DNA of 40,069 nucleotides from a virus. The notes under the pieces are model-generated. The model was given only the letters and a program-made list of their open reading frames with translations. It had not been told where the DNA came from and searched no databases. Location of the stretch: IMG/VR virus record IMGVR_UViG_3300001682_000095, positions 1-40,069 of that record. One strand, 5' to 3'. The stretch's first letter is position 1, and each line of letters opens with the position of its first letter. Of the stretch, positions 2,087 through 13,032 are shown one piece after another. The position numbers and the translations under genes are program-made.

Positions 2087-3245
2087 AAAATGGTTTGGCG
2101 CGTGTAAAGGGCGGCAGGTAGAATATACCCGCCGCCCTTCAGCATTTCAAAAGAGAGGTAAAGGCACATGAGGACATTTAAACATTTTTCATTCAATGAT
2201 AGATTGAGATTAGAGGTTTTATTAAAAGCCGGACACAAACCGGACGAAATAGCCGAAATTTTGCATTTTCATATAAGTACAATATATAGAGAGATAAAAC
2301 GCGGGCAATATGAGGCGTTAAATTCTGATTTAACCACAGAAACGAGATACAGCCCCGATATTGCGCAGGAATATATGAACGGCGTTTTAGCTGCAAAGGG
2401 CGCAGATTTAAAAATAGGCAAAGAAAGAGAATTTGCAGACCGGATAGAGGAAATAATAATAAATGAGGGGTACAGCCCTGCGGCTGCATTGGCAAAGGTA
2501 AAAACAGAGGGTATAGATTTTACGGTATGCGTAACAACCCTATATAGTTACATAGATAAAGGCGTATTTTTAAATTTGACATTGAAAGACCTGCCGGAGA
2601 AACGCAAGGGAGAAAAGCGAACCAAAAGGACAACAACACAAAAAAGAGCATCTAAAGGGGAGAGTATAGAAAACAGACCGCCGGAAATAGAAACGCGGGA
2701 GGAGTTCGGACATTGGGAAATGGATAGCGTAGTAGGTGCGCGCGGCGTTTCTAAAAAGTCTTTATTAGTATTAACAGAGAGGAAAACCCGAAAAGAAATT
2801 ATATTTTTACTAAAAGAACATACAGCGGCAGCAGTTGTAAAGGCATTAGACCGTTTAGAGCGCAAATTAGGCGCAAAATTTCGGGATATATTCAAATCTA
2901 TTACAGTAGATAACGGATCGGAGTTTTCAGATTGGGAAGGCATGGAGCGATCCAAGAGAGCCAAAAAGAAAAGAACCAAAATATATTATTGCCACCCTTA
3001 TAGTAGTTGGGAGCGCGGCAGCAATGAGAACCAAAATAAATTAGTGCGCCGCCACATTCCAAAAGGTGTTAATTTCGATGATAAAACACAAGGCAATATA
3101 GACGATATAACCGAATGGATCAATAATTACCCGCGCCGCATTTTTGAATATAGAACGGCAGAGGAATTATTTAATGAGGAATTAGAGAAAATCGCAGCCT
3201 AAAAAATGAGCATGGCGATATAGTGGTATAAGTGCGCCCATTTTT
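2087..3245 (+). mobile_element. IS30-family insertion sequence (boundaries tentative)
   Basis: Contains the IS30-type transposase gene. AAAATGG..GGCGCG at 2087-2105 weakly matches the reverse complement of 3226-3245. I could not identify direct repeats. Confidence 0.4.
2168..3202 (+). CDS. IS30-family DDE transposase
   Basis: N-terminal HTH (HISTIYREIKRGQY), GHWEMDSV, TVDNGSEF and HPYSSWERGSNENQNKLVRR motifs are typical of IS30 transposases. 344 aa. Confidence 0.85.
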   Translation: MRTFKHFSFNDRLRLEVLLKAGHKPDEIAEILHFHISTIYREIKRGQYEALNSDLTTETRYSPDIAQEYMNGVLAAKGADLKIGKEREFADRIEEIIINEGYSPAAALAKVKTEGIDFTVCVTTLYSYIDKGVFLNLTLKDLPEKRKGEKRTKRTTTQKRASKGESIENRPPEIETREEFGHWEMDSVVGARGVSKKSLLVLTERKTRKEIIFLLKEHTAAAVVKALDRLERKLGAKFRDIFKSITVDNGSEFSDWEGMERSKRAKKKRTKIYYCHPYSSWERGSNENQNKLVRRHIPKGVNFDDKTQGNIDDITEWINNYPRRIFEYRTAEELFNEELEKIAA

Positions 3246-3850: not shown

Positions 3851-4301
3851 CTTGTAGCAAGGGCGGCAACCTTGCGGCAGAGGCAGCAGGCTAAAAGCTG
3901 TTATCTGTATACTGTGAAAAAATAGCAGCGGGCGCACCTGCTAGAAAGTGCGTAGACGGTCAACAAGTTTTCAGATGCTTTTTAATGTGAAAAGCACCCC
4001 ACACAGTAAATATAAAAGCCAAAAGGTATTATATGGGAAAAGCAAGAGAACCACCAAAGGAGGAATTGTGAAAGATATATTTTTAGAAAAAAGAATAGAA
4101 AAATAGCCGTTACGTTGGCAGCGTACCGGCTAAAGATTTAATGCAAATGCAATAACTCAATCTGTATAAATTATACCACTTATTGCGTTTGCCGTCAAGC
4201 CAAGAAACGGCGAAGGTAAGCCGTTTTTGGACTTGTTCAAACTATTAACTTTAGGATCCCTAGAGTACAGAAATACAGAAACGCAAAGGGGTGTAATTTA
4301 T

Positions 4302-5039
4302 ATGCCGTATTTTAAAACAACAGTAGAGGCAGGGGCGACAATAGAGGTTTATAAAAGCTACACAAAAAGAGTAGGGGTTAAGGTTAAGGGCAGTAAAGAA
4401 AAACCAACACCCGAAGAAATGGAAAAAGTAAACCAAATGAACGCAGAGCGCACCCTGCGGCTAAAGATAAATGCAAATTTTGGAGTTGATGATCCATTTA
4501 TAACATTGACATACAGAAAGAACGAACGCCCAACACCGGAGGAGGCAAAGAAAAATATAAAAAAATTATTGGATAGCCTGCGAAAAAAATATAAGGATAT
4601 GGGCGCGGATCTTAAATACATCAATGTTACAGAATATCAAAACAAAGCAATACACCACCATATTTTAATAAACCACATAGCAGGCGCAGATGTTTCTAAA
4701 TGGGTGCGCGATTTGTGGAAGTTTGGCAGACCGGATTTTAAATATTTGGACGATACCGGACAATATAAAGATTTGGCGGCGTATCTGATAAAAGAAACAT
4801 CGAAAACCTATAAAGAGAATGACGGAGGACACAAGCAGCGTTACAGTTGCAGCCGCAATTTAATTATGCCAACGCCAAAAACAGAGATTATAAAAAAGGC
4901 GAAAAAGTGGGCGGCAGATCCAAAACCGATAAAGGGGTATTACATCGATCAAGACACCGTATACAACGGCATAGATCCTTTTACCGGCAGAGAATACCAA
5001 AGATACACCATGATCCGAATATCCGGCGGCAGTGGGTAG
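4302..5039 (+). CDS. Rolling-circle replication initiator (HUH endonuclease superfamily)
   Basis: All three RCR motifs are present in order: FITLTY (motif I), IHHHILI (HUH, motif II), AAYLIKETSK (YxxK, motif III). ATG 4302 follows AAAGGGG. The TTG at 4227 in the ORF track is less likely. Confidence 0.7.
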   Translation: MPYFKTTVEAGATIEVYKSYTKRVGVKVKGSKEKPTPEEMEKVNQMNAERTLRLKINANFGVDDPFITLTYRKNERPTPEEAKKNIKKLLDSLRKKYKDMGADLKYINVTEYQNKAIHHHILINHIAGADVSKWVRDLWKFGRPDFKYLDDTGQYKDLAAYLIKETSKTYKENDGGHKQRYSCSRNLIMPTPKTEIIKKAKKWAADPKPIKGYYIDQDTVYNGIDPFTGREYQRYTMIRISGGSG

Positions 5040-5119
5040 ATTGTGGATAATTTAAAGCAAAAAGCCGGTGCCGACTAATAATTACTAGACGGCAGGGCGG
5101 TTGAAAAGAAGGTGGATAA

Positions 5120-5548
5120 GTGGAAGTAAGTATTTATATTAAGTGCCGTTTTAGAGGCAATCCAAGAGGCGCAGGGGAGGCAGCGGCGGTTATAGAGTAC
5201 ATAGACAAAGGTAGCAACACACATAACCGGCAGCAGCGGATCGAGATTGAAAAGGACACAAAGAACGCTTTATATTTAAAAATTTGCAATGCAGCGATGC
5301 GACTATTATTAAAGCCTTGCAACATCACAATTTTTATAGATTGCGATTACATGGCGAACGCCTGCCGGTTGGGATGGGTGCAAAAATGGCAGCAGGACGG
5401 TTGGAAGAAAGCAAACGGAAAGCCCCCGGCAAATGTTGAGGATTGGAAAGGCTTTTATATACTCACACAGATCCACACCGTAACATTTGAACCATACAAC
5501 GAGAAGTACAACGAGGAATTAGAGGAAATTTTAGGAGGCACAACATGA
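5120..5548 (+). CDS. RNase HI-like protein with substituted catalytic residues
   Basis: GTG start after AAGGTGG. VSIYIKCRFRGNPRGAGEAAAV and IFIDCDYMAN...WVQKWQQDGWKKANGKPPANVEDW align by eye with E. coli RNase HI (IFTDGSCLGNPGPGG; STDSQYV...[20 protein letters not shown]). The first Asp and the Glu positions appear replaced. Confidence 0.5.
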   Translation: MEVSIYIKCRFRGNPRGAGEAAAVIEYIDKGSNTHNRQQRIEIEKDTKNALYLKICNAAMRLLLKPCNITIFIDCDYMANACRLGWVQKWQQDGWKKANGKPPANVEDWKGFYILTQIHTVTFEPYNEKYNEELEEILGGTT

Positions 5549-6277
5549 AATACATGGGTTCCAAAGCGAAAATAGCAAAATTCATAGTGCCGATCATTCA
5601 ACAAAAAATTGATGAAAGCGGCAAAAGAATTTACATAGAACCATTTGCGGGCGGCTGCAATGTGATAGACAAGGTAGAGGCAGATCGGCGCATTGCATCA
5701 GACAAAAACCGGTATTTAATGGCGTTATTTCAGCACCTGCAGGACGGCGGCGAATTGCCGGAACACATAACGCGGGAAGAATACAACAAAGTTAGGGCAA
5801 ATATAAATCAATTTCCGGCGTGGTATGTTGGCGCGGTTGGTTTTCTTGCATCGTATAACGGCAGATTTTTTGACGGCGGCTATGCCGGTTTCGGAAAAGA
5901 TAAAGGCAGGGTTAGGGATTATTACAGAGAAAGCAAAAATAATATTCTTAATCAGATGCAGCAGGGGGGGGATTGCCGGTATAGAGTTTCAAACGCGGGA
6001 TTACAAAGAATTTAGCCCGCAGGGGTGCGTGATATATTGCGATCCACCGTATGAGGGTACAAAACAGTACGGCAACGCAAAAGATTTTGATTATACGGAA
6101 TTTTGGGAAACAATGCGCAAATGGAGTAAACACAACAATATAGTTTTGATTTCGGAGTTACAAGCACCGGCAGACTTTATAACAGTTTGGGAAAAGGAGG
6201 TAGATCGCAGCATGAAAGCAAAAGAGCATTTCAGAGCGACAGAAAAATTATTTATGTGGGGGGGTAGCGATAAATGA
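5545..6277 (+). pseudogene. dam: Dam-type N6-adenine DNA methyltransferase interrupted by a frameshift in a G8 tract (5964-5971)
   Basis: ORF 5545-6015 carries MGSKAKI and EPFAGGCNV (SAM-binding motif). ORF 5825-6277 carries IYCDPPY (motif IV) but has no credible start of its own. A G7 tract would read ...NQMQQGGIAGIEFQTRDYKEF... in one frame. Confidence 0.85.
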
Positions 6278-6741
6278 TTAAGCGAGGCGACATTTATTAT
6301 ATTCGCGACACCCGCCAAAGTATCGGCAGCGAACAGAGAGCAGACAGACCGGCGGTTATTGTTTCAAACGATGCAAATAACAAGCATAGCGGCGTTTATG
6401 AGGTTGTTTACATGACAACACAGCCAAAAACAGACCTGCCAACACATTTTATTACACATTCCGCATTGAAACCGTCAACGGTATTATGCGAGCAGATAAG
6501 CAGCGTTTACGAGGAACGGATCGGAGAATGGATCGGAACGCTGACACTCGAAGAAATGGAAATGTTAAATAAATGTTTGGCGGTATCGGTAGCAATAAAG
6601 CCCGATGCAGCACCGGCAGAAACAGAAAGCCTGCGGCAGCAGGTGGCAGCAGCGTTAGAGGCGCAGCGGGCAGCAGAAAAGCAGGCGGCAACATACAAGG
6701 AAATGTACGAATTTCTTTTAAATAAACAGTTAGGAGCGTGA
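6274..6741 (+). CDS. MazF/PemK/EndoA-family toxin homolog with a roughly 45-aa helical C-terminal extension
   Basis: KRGDIYY, GSEQRADRPAVIVSND, LPTHF, EQISSV and EEMEMLNKCLAVSVAI parallel B. subtilis EndoA (KRGDVYF, GSEQGGVRPVLVIQND, LPTHV, EQIRTI). ATGA overlap with the dam stop. Confidence 0.75.
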   Translation: MIKRGDIYYIRDTRQSIGSEQRADRPAVIVSNDANNKHSGVYEVVYMTTQPKTDLPTHFITHSALKPSTVLCEQISSVYEERIGEWIGTLTLEEMEMLNKCLAVSVAIKPDAAPAETESLRQQVAAALEAQRAAEKQAATYKEMYEFLLNKQLGA

Positions 6742-6745
6742 GAGC

Positions 6746-6916
6746 ATGACAGCGATCGGAACACATAGAAAGTGTTATAAGTGCGGCTGCACAACAAATA
6801 AATTAGATGCTACAAGGTGCGAGTGCGGCGGCTTTTTATACTTAATTAGTCAATTATATATGCCAAAGGTAGCAAAAGAGCAGCAAAAGGAAGAAGGCGA
6901 GAAATGCAGCGAATAG
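6746..6916 (+). CDS. 56-aa zinc-ribbon-like protein
   Basis: AGGAG RBS 6732-6736, ATG 6746, TAG 6914-6916: MTAIGTHRKCYKCGCTTNKLDATRCECGGFLYL... (CxxC ... CxC). Below the ORF-track cutoff. Confidence 0.5.
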   Translation: MTAIGTHRKCYKCGCTTNKLDATRCECGGFLYLISQLYMPKVAKEQQKEEGEKCSE

Positions 6917-7830
6917 GTTTAATTGATGTAGACGGTCACAATTTCCCAAACTTGCCACTTATGAAAATATCAGCATATCACAAGGCGCGCGGCGATAGCG
7001 TGGAATGGTACGAGCCGTTATTTTCGGGAGAAATGGATCGGGTGTATATGTCAAAAGTATTTACATTTACGCCGGATTACCCATATTGCATAAATGCCAA
7101 AGAAATTATAAGAGGCGGCACCGGTTACAACTACCCAAACGGTGGCGAACCGCTACCGGAAGAAATAGAGCATATTTACCCCGATTATGAATTATACGGA
7201 ATTACAAACGAGGCATACGGCTTTTTAACAAGAGGTTGCCCGCGAAATTGTCAATTTTGCATAGTTGGAAAGAAAGAGGGTTTAAAAAGCAAGAAGGTAG
7301 CAGACCTGCAGGAATTTTGGAACGGTCAAAAATACATAAAGTTATTAGATCCCAACATTTTAGCAGCAAAAGAACATAAAGACCTGCTAAAGCAGCTTGC
7401 AGATAGTGGCGCGTGGGTAGATTTTACGCAGGGATTAGATGCAAGGTTATTAACCGAGGAAAATATAGAACTTATAAAGCAGATCAAGATCAAGAATGTA
7501 CATTTTGCGTGGGATAACATAGCCGATGAAAAGGTAATTGTACCAAAGTTAAAGTTATTCAAAGAAAAGACCGGATTAGACAAAAGAAAAATTACGGTTT
7601 ATGTGCTGACAAATTTTAATAGCACATTGCAGGAAGATTTACACCGCGTTTATACGCTTAGAGAGATTGGAGCCGCGCCGTACATAATGATTTACGAAAA
7701 ACAGACCGCACCAAAGGAAATTAAAGACCTGCAAAGGTGGGTTAATAATCGGATCATTTGGTACAGCAGCGAAACGGCAACATTTGAAGATTACAGAGGC
7801 GACACAAAGACCAAAAGGAGGGCAACATGA
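6904..7830 (+). CDS. Radical SAM enzyme (CxxxCxxC) with a B12-binding-like N-terminal region
   Basis: FLTRGCPRNCQFC is the canonical radical SAM cluster motif. The N-terminus IGLIDVDGHNFPNLPLMKISAY resembles the Rossmann-like domain of class-B-type radical SAM proteins. Confidence 0.7.
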   Translation: MQRIGLIDVDGHNFPNLPLMKISAYHKARGDSVEWYEPLFSGEMDRVYMSKVFTFTPDYPYCINAKEIIRGGTGYNYPNGGEPLPEEIEHIYPDYELYGITNEAYGFLTRGCPRNCQFCIVGKKEGLKSKKVADLQEFWNGQKYIKLLDPNILAAKEHKDLLKQLADSGAWVDFTQGLDARLLTEENIELIKQIKIKNVHFAWDNIADEKVIVPKLKLFKEKTGLDKRKITVYVLTNFNSTLQEDLHRVYTLREIGAAPYIMIYEKQTAPKEIKDLQRWVNNRIIWYSSETATFEDYRGDTKTKRRAT

Positions 7831-8315
7831 ATAGCGTACATTTTAGCACCGGTAAAGACGATTGGGGAACCCCGCAGGATCTTTTCGATGCACTCAATAA
7901 AGAATTTAATTTTACATTGGATCCATGCGCAGACGATAACAACCACAAATGCGACAAGTATTACACCATAGAGCAGGACGGTTTGGCGCAATCATGGGCG
8001 GGCGAAACAGTATTTTGCAACCCGCCGTACAGCAGAAAGACCAAGACAAACGCCGGTCAAATTGCATGGGTTGAAAAATGTTACAAAGAGGCGACCGAGG
8101 GGGGGATCATCGTGGTTATGTTGATACCTGCCCGCACCGACACAATAATGTTTCACGATTACATTTTAGGCAAAGCAGAAATACGATTTATCAAAGGGCG
8201 TGTTAATTTCGAGGTTGACGGAGAGAAAAGCAAGGATCCGGCACCATTCCCAAGCATGATCGTAGTATTTCGAGGAAATCAGCCCACAAGCGAAATTAAA
8301 AGCGTGACGGTGTAG
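7827..8315 (+). CDS. Phage-type N6-adenine DNA methyltransferase (Dam_2-like)
   Basis: DDWGTPQDLFDALNKEFNFTLDPCA and FCNPPYS motifs. ATGA overlap with the upstream gene. Confidence 0.75.
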   Translation: MNSVHFSTGKDDWGTPQDLFDALNKEFNFTLDPCADDNNHKCDKYYTIEQDGLAQSWAGETVFCNPPYSRKTKTNAGQIAWVEKCYKEATEGGIIVVMLIPARTDTIMFHDYILGKAEIRFIKGRVNFEVDGEKSKDPAPFPSMIVVFRGNQPTSEIKSVTV

Positions 8316-8330
8316 CAGGGAGGTTATACG

Positions 8331-8600
8331 GTGGAACTTTTAACAGAGGATATAGCGCGCGAATACAGAGATAGAGCCGCAAAGCTACCGTATAACGGTA
8401 TGCAGGATATTGGAGAGCGCAGGCGGTTACGCCTAGAGTTGCAGGAGCGATGCGGCGTAACCGAATTAGAGGCAATAAACATTTTAAACGGTTTTCATAC
8501 AGATGTTTATTGTATGAAATATTGGATTAAGGCGCGAGAGGCAAGAGAAGGAAAACCGGAGCCGCGCAGAAAGAAACAGCGCAGGCAATACGGTTATTAG
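8331..8600 (+). CDS. Hypothetical protein with a basic C-terminus
   Basis: AGGGAGG RBS, GTG 8331, 89-aa ORF. Confidence 0.55.
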   Translation: MELLTEDIAREYRDRAAKLPYNGMQDIGERRRLRLELQERCGVTELEAINILNGFHTDVYCMKYWIKAREAREGKPEPRRKKQRRQYGY

Positions 8601-8609
8601 GTGGAAAGA

Positions 8610-8801
8610 ATGAAACCAAAGAAATTTTATATTATAAGACCGGAAATAGAAATAGAGTACATCAAACACCCATTATTAGGGCGGCTATATATCCTATTCA
8701 ATTATTGGCGATTTGTAAAAGTCGGTTTCTATTGGATATATACATACAAGGTTTATTATATTGCATTTCCGAGGATATACAGAAAGGCAGAATATGAGTA
8801 A
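8610..8801 (+). CDS. Hypothetical aromatic-rich small protein (doubtful)
   Basis: AGGTGG then ATG 8610. AT-rich stretch with unusual Y/F/I-rich composition. Confidence 0.3.
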   Translation: MKPKKFYIIRPEIEIEYIKHPLLGRLYILFNYWRFVKVGFYWIYTYKVYYIAFPRIYRKAEYE

Positions 8802-9090
8802 AACAAAAAGCATTGTAACGGACTATGACAAAATATGTTTCTTTTGTGGCGATCCGGCAGAGTGCGAACATCATTTATTATTTGGCAATGGCATTAGAGA
8901 GTTGGCAGAGCAGGACGGCTTAAAAGTACCGGCGTGTAATAGATGTCACAATATGGGCGCGACAATAGAGCGCGTGCATGAAAATATCATGGCTGAAAAG
9001 TTATCTAAGATGTTAGGGCAGGCGGTTTACGAAGGAAAGATTGGAACGCGGGAAGAATTTAGAAAGCGTTACGGCAAATCGTATTTGTAG
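8794..9090 (+). CDS. HNH-like zinc-finger protein
   Basis: ATG 8794. CFFCG...ECEHHLLFGNG...CNRCHN fits a CxxC / HH / CxxCH HNH-type arrangement. Confidence 0.5.
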   Translation: MSKTKSIVTDYDKICFFCGDPAECEHHLLFGNGIRELAEQDGLKVPACNRCHNMGATIERVHENIMAEKLSKMLGQAVYEGKIGTREEFRKRYGKSYL

Positions 9091-9099
9091 GAGGTGCGC

Positions 9100-9396
9100 A
9101 TGGCATTATCTGAATTGGTAACAGCTTTACAGCAGCAGGCAATGATGCAGCGGGAGAAAGAAAGCGAATTATTAAAAAGCATCGCCGCATTATCAGACTA
9201 TGAAACGGCAGAGGCAGCAGCCGACATTTACGCAGCAGAAAAGCACGCGTATTCATTTGACGGCTATTTATACCAACTTGAAAAGCTGCAAACAGTATTA
9301 GCCGCCGGAGTACCGGCAGAGTTGGCATTAGAGGCGGTAGACAGTTGCGCCGATGCAGCAACAATTATTAGTTTTTATAGAGGAGGTACAGCGTGA
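9100..9396 (+). CDS. Hypothetical protein
   Basis: TAGGAGG RBS 9087-9093, ATG 9100. Confidence 0.6.
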   Translation: MALSELVTALQQQAMMQREKESELLKSIAALSDYETAEAAADIYAAEKHAYSFDGYLYQLEKLQTVLAAGVPAELALEAVDSCADAATIISFYRGGTA

Positions 9397-9785
9397 ACAA
9401 ATGTATTTTCATGGGTAGATTGACGAGGGATCCGGAAATTCGCTACACACAAGGCGAAAAGCCGGTGCCGGTTGTCAACTACACATTAGCAGTAGATAGA
9501 AGATTTAAAAGAGAGGGCGAACCTTCGGCAGATTTTATAAATTTTGTAGCGTATAGCACAGCCGCCGAGTTTGCGGAAAAGTATTTTAAGAAAGGCACAA
9601 AGTTAGTAGTAACGGCGCGTTGCCAAACAAGATCATATACAAACAATGAGGGCAAGAAAGTATATGTTACGGAATTTATTGTAGAGGATCAAGAGTTTGC
9701 GGAAAGCAAGCGGGCAGCAGGAAACGAACCGGCGGGCGATGAATTTATGCAGGTGCCGGACGATGCAGATTTACCATTTAACTAA
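9393..9785 (+). CDS. ssb: Single-stranded DNA-binding protein
   Basis: GAGGAGG RBS, GTG 9393. MNKCIFMGRLTRDPEIRYT OB-fold start and acidic tail ending DDADLPF. Confidence 0.85.
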   Translation: MNKCIFMGRLTRDPEIRYTQGEKPVPVVNYTLAVDRRFKREGEPSADFINFVAYSTAAEFAEKYFKKGTKLVVTARCQTRSYTNNEGKKVYVTEFIVEDQEFAESKRAAGNEPAGDEFMQVPDDADLPFN

Positions 9786-9801
9786 CAAGGAGGAAAAGCA
9801 A

Positions 9802-10626
9802 ATGCGAGTAATTTCAATCATCAGTTTAAAAGGCGGCACCGGAAAGACAACAACAGCCGTAAACATTGCGTACACATTGGCAACAGTACACAATAAAAAA
9901 GTTTTGATTATCGACAATGACAAGCAGGGGAATACCTCAAAATCATTTAAAAGATATGATACAGAGGACACCAACACCATAGCGCGGGTTATGCTGCAAA
10001 GAAATGTTGATGTTTCCGAGGTTATCAAAAGTACAGCTTATGAGGGTATCGACATTATAACCGCAAATATGGACTTGCTAGAGGCAAACCTGCGCACCAT
10101 TGTAGACACCGGCAGGCAGCAGCAAACGAGATTTAAAAAGGCGTTGGAAAATGCAAAGGTAATTGATCGCGGTTGGGCTAAATTTGATTATTTACCATTA
10201 ACGGAGGCATACGATTATTGCATCATAGACAACGCACCCGATATTAACATGAGCATTATTAACGCGCTTGTAATGTCAAATGATGTTATCGTGCCTATAT
10301 TCATGGATCAGTATTCATTTGACGGTTTAGACATTCTGTTAGACCAAATAGCGCAGGTAAAAGAAGATTTTAACGAAAATCTCAATTTTGCCGGTTGCCT
10401 CATTACGCAATACCAAAATAACGAGGTAAACAATCAAGGTATAGAATGGTTAAAGGCGCATGATATACCGATTTTTAAGCAGCAGATCCGCCGGACAGAA
10501 AAGAAAGTAAGCGAAAGCACATTTGCAAAAATGCCGCTTGTGGAATATTCCGTAAGATGCGGCGCGGCGCAGGATTATAAAAAATTCGTATTGGAATATT
10601 TGGAGGGCAGAAATGAAAGCAATTAA
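9802..10626 (+). CDS. parA: ParA/Soj-family partition ATPase
   Basis: AAGGAGG RBS, ATG 9802. Deviant Walker A (SLKGGTGKTTTAVNIA) and the IIDNDKQGN motif. Confidence 0.85.
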   Translation: MRVISIISLKGGTGKTTTAVNIAYTLATVHNKKVLIIDNDKQGNTSKSFKRYDTEDTNTIARVMLQRNVDVSEVIKSTAYEGIDIITANMDLLEANLRTIVDTGRQQQTRFKKALENAKVIDRGWAKFDYLPLTEAYDYCIIDNAPDINMSIINALVMSNDVIVPIFMDQYSFDGLDILLDQIAQVKEDFNENLNFAGCLITQYQNNEVNNQGIEWLKAHDIPIFKQQIRRTEKKVSESTFAKMPLVEYSVRCGAAQDYKKFVLEYLEGRNESN

Positions 10627-10816
10627 ATTTAAAGCCAAATGCCCTTATGAAATAGGCGACAAGATACAGTTTGAAAAGGGCGGCGAAACAAAGATAATGC
10701 AGATTACGGATATTATAACGCAGGTAAGTGCAAAGACCGGTAGCATCACATTTATTTTAGAGTTAGACGGTTGGTACAAGCTAAACACGAATTTACACGA
10801 TGTAAAAATACCGTAA
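10613..10816 (+). CDS. Hypothetical small protein
   Basis: GGAGGG RBS, ATG 10613, 67 aa. Confidence 0.5.
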   Translation: MKAIKFKAKCPYEIGDKIQFEKGGETKIMQITDIITQVSAKTGSITFILELDGWYKLNTNLHDVKIP

Positions 10817-10872
10817 CGCCTAGTATTTACTAGACGAAATACCCAAATTAGGTACACAAAGGAGGCAGGCAA

Positions 10873-12234
10873 ATGGGCTTTAATATCAATAGTTTTTTGA
10901 ATGATGAAAGCAAGAAAGAAATAAAAAGTGATTGGAAACCGGTTAAATTGAGTGTACACAAATTAAGACCGGCAGCGGGCAAAGAAAACTTTTACCACAT
11001 GGACGATAGAGAGGTAGAAGAAACAGCCCGCACAATCGAATTAGTGGGAATACAGCAATATCCGGTTGTAAAACCGGTTGAGGGTACGGACGAATACGAG
11101 ATTATCGCCGGACACAAAAGGCGGCTTGCAGTTTTAAAGTTAATTGCAGAGGGTAAGACAGAATATGAAATGATCCCTTGCAAGATTGAAAGCGCAACCG
11201 ACAGCATCAGAAACCGTTTAATTTTAATCTTTACAAATTCCACACAGCGCGAAAGAACCGATTACGAGAAAATGCAGGAAATAAAAGAGGTTCGCAAGCT
11301 GTTAGAGGAATGGCAGAAAAATAACGAGTTATCGGGCAAGCTGCAAAACATCATTGCCGAGGTTTTAGGCACCAACAAAACCAAAGTAGGCACATTAGAA
11401 CACATAGACGGCAAGTTAATAGAACCGTTTAAAGAAGAATTTGCAGCGGGAAAGATTAGCACCCATGCAGCAAATGAGATAGCCGGATTAGACGAGGCGG
11501 CGCAGCAGGTATTATATGAAACCTACAAAGAAACCGGATCATTAACCGCCAAAGATGCAAGGGCGATTAAGGAACCGGAAAAGCCGCAGGCGGCAGCCAA
11601 AGAGCCGCCAAAAGAGGCAGAGGCGAAAGAAACCCCGAAGGAACCGGAAACGCCCGAAAATGAGGCGCAGGACGAGCCACAGCCGCAATTTATGAATGAA
11701 CCGGAAACCAAAGTAACATATAATCAGCCGTTACCGGACACCACAGACCGCCGATCACTCATAATTAACGGCAGAATTAACCGATACAAGGAATTTAACG
11801 GCATGACGGTTAATTATTTCATGGGTGCGGTTATCGGTTCCGATCTATTCGATACGCAGTTTTGGGAAGGTTGGAAAGAAAACACCGGCGCAAAATGGGA
11901 ATACATAGCAGATTACGCCGGAACAAAGACCACATACACCGTACAGACCGACACAACCGAGAAATGCGAGGCACTTTTAACAGATACCGGATTAGAGGTT
12001 TTAAGAGTGGCAGCAGGACAAACGGCGGTTATCAGATACGAGGAATTGGCAGAACTCATAGACATTATGATCTATACGAAAGTAATTGAAATAACCACCA
12101 TAGAAAGCGATTTAAAGTATTGGGCGGCACGCACAACCAAAGAATTAGCGGCGGTTAGTAATTACTTGACGGAAAATGAAATTTATGTATTGCAGGATCT
12201 TATGATGAAATGCAAGGAAAGGGCGGGCAGATAA
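10873..12234 (+). CDS. parB: ParB/Srx-domain protein with a Pro/Glu-rich linker and an uncharacterised C-terminal domain
   Basis: QYPVVKPVEGTDEYEIIAGHKRRLAVLKL is the ParB N-terminal motif. Linker KEPEKPQAAAKEPPKEAEAKETPKEPETPENE. Confidence 0.75.
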   Translation: MGFNINSFLNDESKKEIKSDWKPVKLSVHKLRPAAGKENFYHMDDREVEETARTIELVGIQQYPVVKPVEGTDEYEIIAGHKRRLAVLKLIAEGKTEYEMIPCKIESATDSIRNRLILIFTNSTQRERTDYEKMQEIKEVRKLLEEWQKNNELSGKLQNIIAEVLGTNKTKVGTLEHIDGKLIEPFKEEFAAGKISTHAANEIAGLDEAAQQVLYETYKETGSLTAKDARAIKEPEKPQAAAKEPPKEAEAKETPKEPETPENEAQDEPQPQFMNEPETKVTYNQPLPDTTDRRSLIINGRINRYKEFNGMTVNYFMGAVIGSDLFDTQFWEGWKENTGAKWEYIADYAGTKTTYTVQTDTTEKCEALLTDTGLEVLRVAAGQTAVIRYEELAELIDIMIYTKVIEITTIESDLKYWAARTTKELAAVSNYLTENEIYVLQDLMMKCKERAGR

Positions 12235-12548
12235 TGGAAAATAATTTAGCTTATATATGCAGCCCATACAGAGGAAATATTATTGAACGGTTCCGCAATA
12301 TCCGGTACGCAAGATATATAACAAAGATTGCGTTAGATTTAGGTTACACGCCGATAACAACGCATTTGTATTTAACGCAGGTACTTGATGATAAAGTACC
12401 GATGCAGAGGCGGCGCGGATTAAGAGCCGGACAAGATATTTTAAACGCCTGCGGCACAATTATTATAGGCGCGCGATATGGCGTAAGTGAGGGCATGGCA
12501 GCAGAGATAAAGGCAGCCAAAGGCAAAAATACAATTATCATACCATAG
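12234..12548 (+). CDS. Hypothetical protein, possibly nucleoside 2-deoxyribosyltransferase-like (DUF4406-type)
   Basis: TAATG overlap with parB. LAYICSPYRG... resembles that fold family. Call is from memory only. Confidence 0.35.
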   Translation: MENNLAYICSPYRGNIIERFRNIRYARYITKIALDLGYTPITTHLYLTQVLDDKVPMQRRRGLRAGQDILNACGTIIIGARYGVSEGMAAEIKAAKGKNTIIIP

Positions 12549-12556
12549 GAGGACTT

Positions 12557-12754
12557 ATGACACCGGAAGAAAAAGCGGCAGAGGCAGAAAAGAACCTGCA
12601 GGAAATATTCAAAGAAGATCCGGAATTAAAAAAGGCGTTCAAAGAAACTATTGCAGAAATGAAAAAGCCGGAGAATATAAAAAGAGATGCGGCGGCAGCA
12701 GCAAAAGCATTTAATAAAATTATGGAGGTAGCACGCAATGGCAAAGGGAATTAA
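12557..12754 (+). CDS. Hypothetical helical protein
   Basis: AGGAGG RBS, ATG 12557. Confidence 0.55.
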   Translation: MTPEEKAAEAEKNLQEIFKEDPELKKAFKETIAEMKKPENIKRDAAAAAKAFNKIMEVARNGKGN

Positions 12755-12986
12755 GTTAAACAGAGAACAATATAAAAGAGTTAAACGCATGGATCATAAG
12801 CAAATGGAAACTTTTATTGTGAATATGTATAACGAGGGTTTCGAGGACGGAAAAAAGGCAGCGGGCAGCAGGGTTAAGCCTTCAGACATTGCAAGCGTAT
12901 TAGTAGACATTAAGGGCGTAGGAACCAAGAAAGCCGCCGAAATCATGGCAGCAGTAAACAAATTATACGAGGGAGGCGCAAAATGA
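12738..12986 (+). CDS. Hypothetical protein with a helix-hairpin-helix-like motif
   Basis: GGAGG RBS, ATG 12738. IKGVGTKKAAEI. Confidence 0.55.
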   Translation: MAKGIKLNREQYKRVKRMDHKQMETFIVNMYNEGFEDGKKAAGSRVKPSDIASVLVDIKGVGTKKAAEIMAAVNKLYEGGAK

Positions 12987-13032
12987 TGTTATCAGAAATC
13001 GTAGAAAAGACAGAACGGACAGCGGGGGGGTA

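Follow-up and report, generated by a model that had tools for sequence, protein, structure and literature searches.

A predicted stand-alone radical SAM enzyme of the PHROG 9298 family with a DNA-directed genomic context, encoded in the early operon of a virus

Spore photoproduct lyase repairs DNA through radical chemistry. Action on DNA is known for only two radical SAM enzymes, the other being gp53 of phage M6, a GlyT isomerase that takes part in the hypermodification of phage DNA (PMC8989533). A radical SAM/DUF483 module described in Thermus phages has another set of genes, with DUF483 partners (PMC11437467). The protein analyzed in this study probably belongs to a different subfamily from spore photoproduct lyase and M6 gp53, which, as enzymes that apply radical SAM chemistry to DNA, are proposed as its analogues in function. 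Kinase and transferase genes of thymidine hypermodification were found neither among the 22 scanned ORFs of the window nor among the commonest neighbours of the family.

The window, i.e. the whole analyzed stretch of 40,069 nt (IMG/VR record IMGVR_UViG_3300001682_000095), carries an operon with genes for Rep, RNase H, two adenine methyltransferases (D12 and Dam), SSB, ParA and ParB. The features discussed below are as follows:

5545-6277, plus strand: D12-class adenine methyltransferase gene (PF02086), frameshifted (identified with profiles; intact in relatives)
6274-6741, plus strand: MazF/PemK-like toxin gene (PF02452, 9.3e-22; phrog_1936)
6746-6916, plus strand: ORF of 56 aa with 6 Cys, zinc-ribbon-like (from the ORF list)
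6904-7830, plus strand: radical SAM gene, 308 aa, PHROG 9298 (from the ORF list and family profile)
7237-7260, plus strand: codons of the [4Fe-4S]/SAM cluster motif, C112-x3-C116-x2-C119 (from the family alignment)
7827-8315, plus strand: Dam-type (PF05869) orphan N6-adenine DNA methyltransferase gene, 162 aa (from profiles and the NPPY motif)
12210-12548, plus strand: DUF7768/nucleoside 2-deoxyribosyltransferase-like ORF (PF24963, 9e-26; phrog_355, 8.3e-17)

The radical SAM ORF of 308 aa, recognized in an earlier note made from the sequence alone, was confirmed, and its GCPRNCQFC stretch corresponds to residues 111-119. The protein belongs to PHROG 9298, of which it is typical (phrog_9298 HMM, 8.9e-116; residues 3-299 on profile positions 2-296 of 305), and no structural difference from other members was seen. 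Cysteines C112, C116 and C119 (CX3CX2C) are invariant in 68/68 aligned members of the family, and outside this motif no alignment column, such as might mark an auxiliary cluster, has Cys in more than 31% of them. The general radical SAM profile PF04055 gave 24.3 bits against a cut-off of 29.5, so this sequence model by itself would miss the protein. NCBIfam returned no equivalog and nothing better than E 1e-3, PADLOC gave no match, a sequence search of the PDB produced only marginal matches to MiaB and RimO (best E 0.0045), and a BFVD search returned only generic or unnamed radical SAM proteins. The AlphaFold (AF2) model, with a pLDDT of 95.6, has an N-terminal Rossmann domain of the B12-binding-like type, which covers roughly the first 100 residues, and a radical SAM core (about 100-300), a partial TIM barrel with which dozens of radical SAM structures align over residues 100-300 (Z 8-18). 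On sequence and model together, the product of ORF 6904-7830 is predicted to be a stand-alone radical SAM enzyme using a [4Fe-4S] cluster and SAM. The median pI of the family is only 8.2 and 17/68 members are acidic, an observation counting against DNA as a substrate.

Matches covering both domains were obtained with AprD4 (Z 18.4), MgmA (18.3), MiaB (17.4), RimO (16.4) and TsrM (16.3). The N-terminus, previously described as resembling a B12 domain, indeed superposes, over approximately its first 100 residues, on the corresponding domains of AprD4, MgmA and TsrM (Z 16-18), and the MgmA and TsrM matches to the whole model begin at residues 1-3. The best structural match, AprD4 (290 residues aligned, rmsd 3.4), shares 13% identity with the window protein and differs from it in length (454 aa), in having an aminoglycoside substrate and in being encoded within a biosynthetic cluster, of which there is no counterpart here. 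AprD4 is a radical SAM diol dehydratase whose B12-like domain binds no cobalamin, and therefore the fold cannot decide cobalamin binding in the window protein. The class B methylases (MgmA, TsrM, CysS with Z 13.9 and TokK with Z 12.4) likewise have a B12-binding-type Rossmann domain in front of the core, whereas in the window protein this domain comprises only about 100 residues and no C-terminal domain follows. The methylthiotransferases MiaB, RimO and MtaB share the N-terminal Rossmann-like domain and the core, but the window protein is about 130 residues shorter, aligns with residues 17-393 of MiaB only, and lacks both their auxiliary-cluster cysteines and a TRAM domain, since it stops at residue 308 (AF2 model and fold comparison). 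The closest solved folds act on RNA, proteins or small molecules and not on DNA, which counts against a DNA reading.

Three better-known assignments can be set aside, as had been supposed. QueE (Z 9.7), the activase PFL-AE (Z 11.1) and viperin (Z 10.0) align with the core only, neither QueE nor NrdG-type activases are matched in NCBIfam and viperin-like enzymes are matched in neither PADLOC nor NCBIfam; moreover, the N-domain is foreign to activases, and the clusters that most often neighbour the family include no QueC, QueD or FolE. Spore photoproduct lyase (4fhc) aligns over residues 89-291 with Z 8.3, on par with unrelated radical SAM enzymes.

PHROG 9298 is a very large family, comprising no fewer than 8000 clusters when grouped at 90% identity (3416 at 50% identity) and carried by phages, plasmids, conjugative elements and archaeal viruses. 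Members occur in cultured phages of Bacteroides, Phocaeicola and Clostridium and in approximately 5% of the sampled Clostridia species genomes, and relatives at 31-32% identity were found on Methylorubrum and Bosea plasmids. Two phage members, phiCT453B gp19 of a Clostridium phage (59% identity) and QVQ57207 of the Bacteroides LoVEphage (40% identity), share both the length and the early-region position of the window protein. Longer forms of 618-626 aa carry a C-terminal extension of about 300 residues, for which Atlas gives a weak exonuclease-like lead (0.90-0.91). The family has no assigned function: PHROG 9298 is named only as a 'radical SAM domain protein', and no characterisation of it was found in the literature.

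The radical SAM gene is followed directly by the Dam gene, and the ATGA overlap reported earlier was verified, the stop of the former and the start of the latter sharing positions 7827-7830. The Shine-Dalgarno sequence of Dam, AAGGAGGG (7815-7822), lies within the 3' end of the radical SAM gene. The assignment of Dam is based on PF05869 (E 1.8e-32; 112.8 bits, with the cut-off at 28.1), the PADLOC orphan methyltransferase model PDLC03726 (3.7e-51) and an NPPY catalytic motif in the translation; against TIGR01712 it scored 96.7, slightly below the cut-off of 97.05. Upstream, what had been taken for a second, phase-broken Dam is a genuinely broken gene of another class, namely a D12 methyltransferase (PF02086), which a +1 shift at a G8 tract (5964-5971) breaks into two pieces, 5545-6015 and 5825-6277. 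In two relatives at 78% identity (L005 and L006) it is a single intact gene of 247 aa that abuts the radical SAM gene, and the MazF/PemK-like gene that separates the two here is missing from that place. The arrangement MazF-like gene, radical SAM gene, Dam gene is otherwise found only in the closest relatives of the window phage. The deoxyribosyltransferase-like ORF noticed before is DUF7768 (phrog_355). It belongs to the same long operon but is located 4.4 kb away, past SSB, ParA and ParB, so its link to the radical SAM gene is weak. Members of a DUF4406 cluster are found near the radical SAM gene in 3/92 lineages, and DUF4406 also occurs on a Selenomonas plasmid. Genes of HNH-like and NDT-like type close to the radical SAM copy of that plasmid were considered as counterparts of window genes and rejected, as there is no homology.

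The surroundings of the family were compared in 177 loci, dereplicated to 92 lineages at 80% identity, counting as DNA-modification genes those for C5, N4/N6, Dam, D12 and MT-A70 methyltransferases and for PAPS-reductase-like proteins. The commonest neighbours within three genes on either side were (i) N6_N4 methyltransferases (17 lineages), (ii) C5 methyltransferases (16 + 7), (iii) Dam PF05869 (8), (iv) PAPS-reductase-like proteins (8 + 6) and (v) MT-A70 (3). Position -1 is occupied by a DNA-modification gene in 20.6% of lineages, compared with 1-3% at positions 4-8. A directly adjacent DNA-modification gene was observed in 23.8 of the 92 lineages, compared with 7.4±2.0 (maximum 14.8) in a random-centre control drawn 2000 times. 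It counts against a DNA reading that phage early regions are methyltransferase-rich in any case and that the control came from the same radical SAM-centred loci. All adjacent partners are on the same strand, and most overlap the radical SAM gene or lie within 25 nt of it. In 58% of lineages no recognised DNA-modification gene is present within three genes, and this, together with phiCT453B, a complete phage that carries the radical SAM gene and no annotated methyltransferase, counts against a DNA reading.

A second line of evidence comes from fusions. The complete radical SAM module is joined to an ERF annealase in 34 clusters and to ParB_N in 8 clusters (both at 90% identity), and to methyltransferases of the N6_N4 (P0271), N6_N4 plus MT-A70 (P0344, an NCBI record) and C5 (P0322) types. 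In the tree of radical SAM domains, at least 8 clades, each pure and apart from the others, consist of fusions with DNA-acting partners. Some of the fusions may be gene-calling artefacts; in one locus (L197:4001-5746) the radical SAM-ERF protein is encoded by an uninterrupted ORF of 581 aa, followed by a YqaJ exonuclease gene. Fusions with TraG, topoisomerase III and YodL/LPD26 contain only a partial radical SAM module and were rejected, being read as signs of adjacency or artefacts.

As the family recurs beside, or fused to, DNA-handling enzymes, it probably works on DNA, and a DNA-directed role for the PHROG 9298 enzyme is well supported by context. The earlier suggestion that coupling to a DNA methyltransferase points to chemistry on DNA therefore stands in part: the DNA context is family-wide, as seen in the enrichment and the fusions, whereas the coupling itself is lost at 78% identity. 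Our main reading, to which we assign a probability of roughly 45%, is that of a stand-alone radical SAM enzyme that modifies the DNA of the mobile element itself and so shields it from host nucleases. The enzyme would be expressed from the early replication and modification operon, and its most likely target would be the DNA of the element, plausibly in single-stranded or freshly synthesised form, on which it would install or reshape a base modification that supplements ordinary methylation; the purpose would be protection of this DNA. Coupled translation with the orphan Dam would be one among many interchangeable arrangements and not an obligate pathway. What counts against this reading is the diversity of the partner classes, which rules out any one modified base as a shared substrate.

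The most probable alternative, though still rather unlikely, is DNA repair or processing, in which the 5'-deoxyadenosyl radical would reverse or remove lesions, for example aberrant alkylation caused by promiscuous methyltransferases or SAM, in a way similar to the repair by spore photoproduct lyase. The enzyme would then act on single-stranded DNA while the element replicates, recombines or enters a cell by conjugation. Conjugative elements enter cells as single-stranded DNA, and genes of the family adjoin those for T4SS coupling proteins on plasmids and conjugative elements. ERF, the commonest fusion partner, anneals single-stranded DNA and is followed by the YqaJ gene, a weak SSB-like fusion was found (P0326), and in the window the SSB gene lies 1.1 kb 3' of the radical SAM gene. 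The association with every class of methyltransferase would also suit repair of by-products more than a base-specific pathway. However, spore photoproduct lyase aligns with the core only (Z 8.3), no lesion-recognition domain is evident and it is genomic context by itself that suggests repair. The relatives on Methylorubrum and Bosea plasmids (31-32% identity) are found in aerobes, where oxygen-dependent repair is available, which weakens the argument for an anaerobic substitute; an oxygen-free substitute confined to anaerobes was rejected for this reason.

It is improbable that the substrate is a small molecule, i.e. a nucleotide, SAM (turned into an altered alkyl donor for any methyltransferase) or a host defence signal. 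The ERF and ParB_N fusions are hard to account for in this way, some carriers lack any annotated methyltransferase, the neighbour clusters include no conserved gene for a biosynthetic partner and there is no PADLOC match. The points in its favour are the best fold match, AprD4 (Z 18.4), an enzyme that has a B12-like domain and works on a small molecule, the recurrence of NDT-like genes (DUF7768, DUF4406) nearby, and the range of methyltransferase classes, which, together with a SAM synthetase gene in one family locus, would suit a role at the level of the cofactor.

Still less probable is RNA modification by a reduced relative of the methylthiotransferases, altering host or phage tRNA or rRNA in favour of phage translation. 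MiaB, MtaB and RimO are the top sequence-profile and Foldseek matches, extending over both domains (Z 16-17), but the three cysteines of their N-domain auxiliary cluster are absent, those of CX3CX2C alone being conserved, the RNA-binding TRAM domain is missing, no NCBIfam equivalog is matched, and the genomic context, in neighbours and fusion partners alike, is one of DNA and not RNA.

An obligate two-enzyme module, in which m6A produced by the coupled Dam would be the substrate of a further conversion by the radical SAM enzyme, is very unlikely. The ATGA overlap and the position of the Dam Shine-Dalgarno sequence would fit it, as would the presence of Dam-family genes near the radical SAM gene in 8/92 lineages and that of a Dam two genes downstream in LoVEphage. 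The pairing is nevertheless lost at 78% identity, an extra ORF separating the two genes in L005 and an MT-A70 gene occupying the Dam slot in L006; C5-cytosine and N4/N6 methyltransferases outnumber Dam among the varied partners, and phiCT453B does without an annotated methyltransferase. Since the Dam coupling is not conserved, it cannot define a module: it is local, and a specific module of radical SAM enzyme and Dam is not supported.

Peptide or protein maturation, be it RiPP-type modification of the 56-aa ORF with 6 Cys, which overlaps the radical SAM start by 13 nt, or glycyl-radical activation, is the least credible alternative, with this overlap as the point in its favour. That ORF, which has no family match in profile or PADLOC searches, is not a conserved family partner (small Cys-rich ORFs abut the gene in just 7/92 lineages upstream and 11/92 downstream, with unrelated sequences, and a RiPP partner was rejected as no small ORF is conserved across the 92 lineages), while the enzyme has neither a SPASM/twitch Cys cluster nor an RRE domain (model and 68-member alignment) and activases match its core only.

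With a compact enzyme of 300 residues, a confident model and cultured carriers, the question of DNA as substrate is directly testable. If DNA is modified or repaired, the family would reveal that the contest of restriction with anti-restriction among the mobile elements of the gut has a layer not recognised so far, and that nucleic acids undergo a radical reaction new to science; it could also account for anomalies of base calling or kinetics in metagenomes sequenced with long reads. We suggest, tentatively, that PHROG 9298 may be a third kind of radical SAM enzyme that acts on DNA, structurally unlike the other two and widespread in gut phages. It would place a radical-derived, non-methyl mark on the DNA of phages and conjugative elements while this is single-stranded or nascent, or would remove lesions from it. 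If true, many viruses of the human gut would have a DNA modification that has so far gone unrecognised.

The radical SAM (rSAM) gene and the methyltransferase gene coupled to it are carried by a complete 40,069-bp IMG/VR virus genome with direct terminal repeats, in which nearly all long ORFs lie on the plus strand.

Gene order around the rSAM gene in the window
Upstream, first in order: rolling-circle Rep gene
Upstream, between Rep and the D12 methyltransferase: RNase H gene
Upstream, after RNase H: D12-class methyltransferase gene, broken
Upstream, between the D12 methyltransferase and the 56-aa ORF: MazF-like gene
Directly upstream: 56-aa six-cysteine ORF, overlapping the rSAM start by 13 nt
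6904-7830, plus strand: rSAM gene
7827-8315, plus strand: Dam gene
Downstream, before SSB: HNH-like gene
Downstream, after the HNH-like gene: SSB, ParA, ParB, DUF7768 and DnaQ-like exonuclease genes, in this order

The ORFs, their junction, the Dam match and the gene layout were all found in the window, which confirms the observation made in the earlier note. The rSAM gene encodes a 308-aa protein with GCPRNCQFC at residues 111-119, and its TGA overlaps the Dam ATG as ATGA, with a strong AAGGAGGG site 5 nt upstream of that ATG. The Dam product was assigned to the PF05869 Dam-family adenine methyltransferases (1.8e-32) and to the orphan methyltransferases by PADLOC class (3.7e-51). No terminator-like sites were found on the plus strand at 4000-13000. 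A protein from the same single-linkage cluster as this Dam (L110:5400-5855) scored for the Pfam 'Mom' model PF25680 (28.0 bits, cut-off 27.1) and not for PF05869, which suggests, from sequence matches, that the two models overlap within this small-methyltransferase family.

The second, phase-broken Dam that had been placed upstream is also present; it is of the D12 class, its reading frame shifts by +1 at a G8 tract (5964-5971), and relatives have it intact. The near-identical contig L004 has G7 at this site, yet an extra A farther upstream, so the two copies are broken differently. The frameshift at the G tract could reflect phase variation, decay or a homopolymer sequencing error. Further G7 tracts are located at 6258-6264, where the D12 gene ends, and at 8099-8105, within the Dam gene; the window contains 7 matches to G7+ tracts against a shuffle mean of 3.3, an excess that is not significant.

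The regions 2168-3202, 4227-5039 and 9697-12234 encode a phrog_4646 'transposase' along with rolling-circle Rep, ParA and ParB; no integrase was found among the window ORFs scanned, and the virus may be maintained as a phage-plasmid. GC skew ranges between +0.12 and +0.22 and AT skew between +0.15 and +0.35, both uniformly positive over all 40 kb. The MazF/PemK-like toxin gene has a C-terminal extension and no recognisable antitoxin upstream; together with the 56-aa ORF (both within 6274-6916) it constitutes an insertion between the D12 and rSAM genes relative to the related phages L005 and L006.

The rSAM protein matched PHROG 9298 'radical SAM domain protein' over its full length (8.9e-116). 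Its score for the Pfam radical SAM model is below the cut-off; the NCBIfam profile search gave no equivalog and PADLOC no match. Across 68 aligned members, cysteine is conserved at the three CX3CX2C positions alone, the other invariant positions being G72, G111, G126, D149, D204 and N281. A confident AlphaFold model (pLDDT 95.6, pTM 0.90) comprises a Rossmann-like domain of ~100 residues and a radical SAM core. Superpositions spanning the two domains were obtained with AprD4 (Z 18.4), MgmA (18.3), MiaB (17.4), RimO (16.4) and TsrM (16.3), in agreement with Foldseek, and the protein is therefore a pared-down relative of the clade joining a B12-binding-like domain to a radical SAM core. This bears out the B12-domain-like N-terminus proposed earlier. 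The common core alone accounts for the matches to QueE, activases, viperin and spore photoproduct lyase (Z 8-11), in keeping with the earlier note, which did not recognise the protein as QueE, an NrdG-type activase or viperin-like; methylthiotransferases are defined by an auxiliary cluster and a TRAM domain, both of which this protein lacks.

PHROG 9298 comprises at least 8000 clusters at 90% identity (word-indexed search); an exhaustive search gave 3416 clusters at 50% identity with E ≤ 1e-3 and 456 with E ≤ 1e-30. No published characterisation was found in the literature searched. Viral carriers are phages of Clostridium, Bacteroides, Phocaeicola and Oscillospiraceae, viruses of Methanomassiliicoccales and one Marinitoga virus, and prophage-like carriers occur in Blautia, other Lachnospiraceae, Phascolarctobacterium, Christensenella and Melainabacteria. 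Among Clostridia (the class of the Blautia genome), 19/301 sampled species genomes contained the family at E ≤ 1e-10, and roughly a dozen of these gave strong matches. Plasmid carriers include a few from aerobic alphaproteobacteria (31-32% identity). Intein or LAGLIDADG/HNH homing-endonuclease insertions break up some members (P0277, P0325 and P0227), and the nr annotation of one of them names a radical SAM enzyme with an intein.

The specific rSAM-Dam module proposed in the earlier note is not supported by comparison with relatives. Of two related phages whose rSAM is 78% identical to that of the window, L005 has a 91-aa ORF between rSAM and Dam and L006 has an MT-A70 methyltransferase in the Dam slot, while the complete phage phiCT453B has the rSAM enzyme and no annotated methyltransferase. 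Dam coupling is thus not a property of PHROG 9298, and an obligate Dam partnership, for which the window junction might speak, is less likely. In L005 and L006 the D12 gene is unbroken and runs directly up to the rSAM start. Methyltransferase cassettes have clearly been swapped in the shared downstream slot (PF05869 Dam at L005:5419-5922, MT-A70 at L006:5345-5893).

At the family level, PHROG 9298 is linked to DNA modification. ORFs were called and proteins clustered in 177 loci, dereplicated to 92 lineages at 80% rSAM identity. Within three genes of rSAM, the commonest cluster was an N6_N4 methyltransferase (17 of the 92 lineages), followed by C5 methyltransferases (two clusters, 16 and 7), Dam PF05869 (8), PAPS-reductase-like proteins (two clusters, 8 and 6), MT-A70 (3) and D12 (2). 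Position -1 held a gene of these classes in 20.6% of lineages, against 6-10% for the rest of the three-gene range and 0-6% (mostly 1-3%) for positions 4-8. Directly adjacent genes were found in 23.8/92 lineages, against 7.4±2.0 (maximum 14.8; 2000 draws) for random centres drawn within the same rSAM-collected loci, and genes within three positions in 38.6 against 20.5±2.5. Adjacent partners were always co-directional with rSAM and mostly ≤25 nt apart or overlapping.

Longer proteins were also scanned for the complete rSAM module. It was found joined to an ERF single-strand annealing protein (34 clusters at 90% identity), ParB_N (8 clusters), an ABC-type ATPase (14 clusters, all one lineage), an N6_N4 methyltransferase (P0271), N6_N4 plus MT-A70 (NCBI protein P0344), a C5 methyltransferase (P0322) and, as a weak match, an SSB-like fold. 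In the topology of a midpoint-rooted FastTree of the rSAM domain, ERF fusions formed three pure clades and ParB fusions two, and the three methyltransferase fusions were separate from one another. The one fusion checked at the DNA level (rSAM-ERF, L197:4001-5746) reads through without interruption as a 581-aa ORF under table 11, and the next gene encodes a YqaJ exonuclease. Apparent fusions to a TraG-type coupling protein, topoisomerase III and YodL/LPD26 were only partial and are better read as adjacency on conjugative elements, as is the layout of a Selenomonas plasmid (DUF4406, coupling protein, two ORFs, rSAM, HNH).

The DNA-directed chemistry suspected earlier is supported by this context, namely the enriched adjacent DNA-modification genes and the fusions to DNA-handling proteins. 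Several recurrent partners handle single-stranded DNA, and a repair or processing role there is the main rival, though an unlikely one. Modification of RNA, chemistry on small molecules or cofactors and maturation of a peptide are less likely. Action on DNA has been reported for just two radical SAM enzymes, spore photoproduct lyase and M6 gp53 (PMC8989533), which belong to a different subfamily from PHROG 9298. All recurrent partners handle DNA, and the reading that accounts for this most economically (probability about 0.45) is a DNA-directed radical SAM enzyme that would belong to the genes with which a mobile element modifies and protects its DNA. The window adds no feature beyond what PHROG 9298 displays elsewhere; its rSAM gene is real and intact, and typical of a large and uncharacterised family of enzymes.
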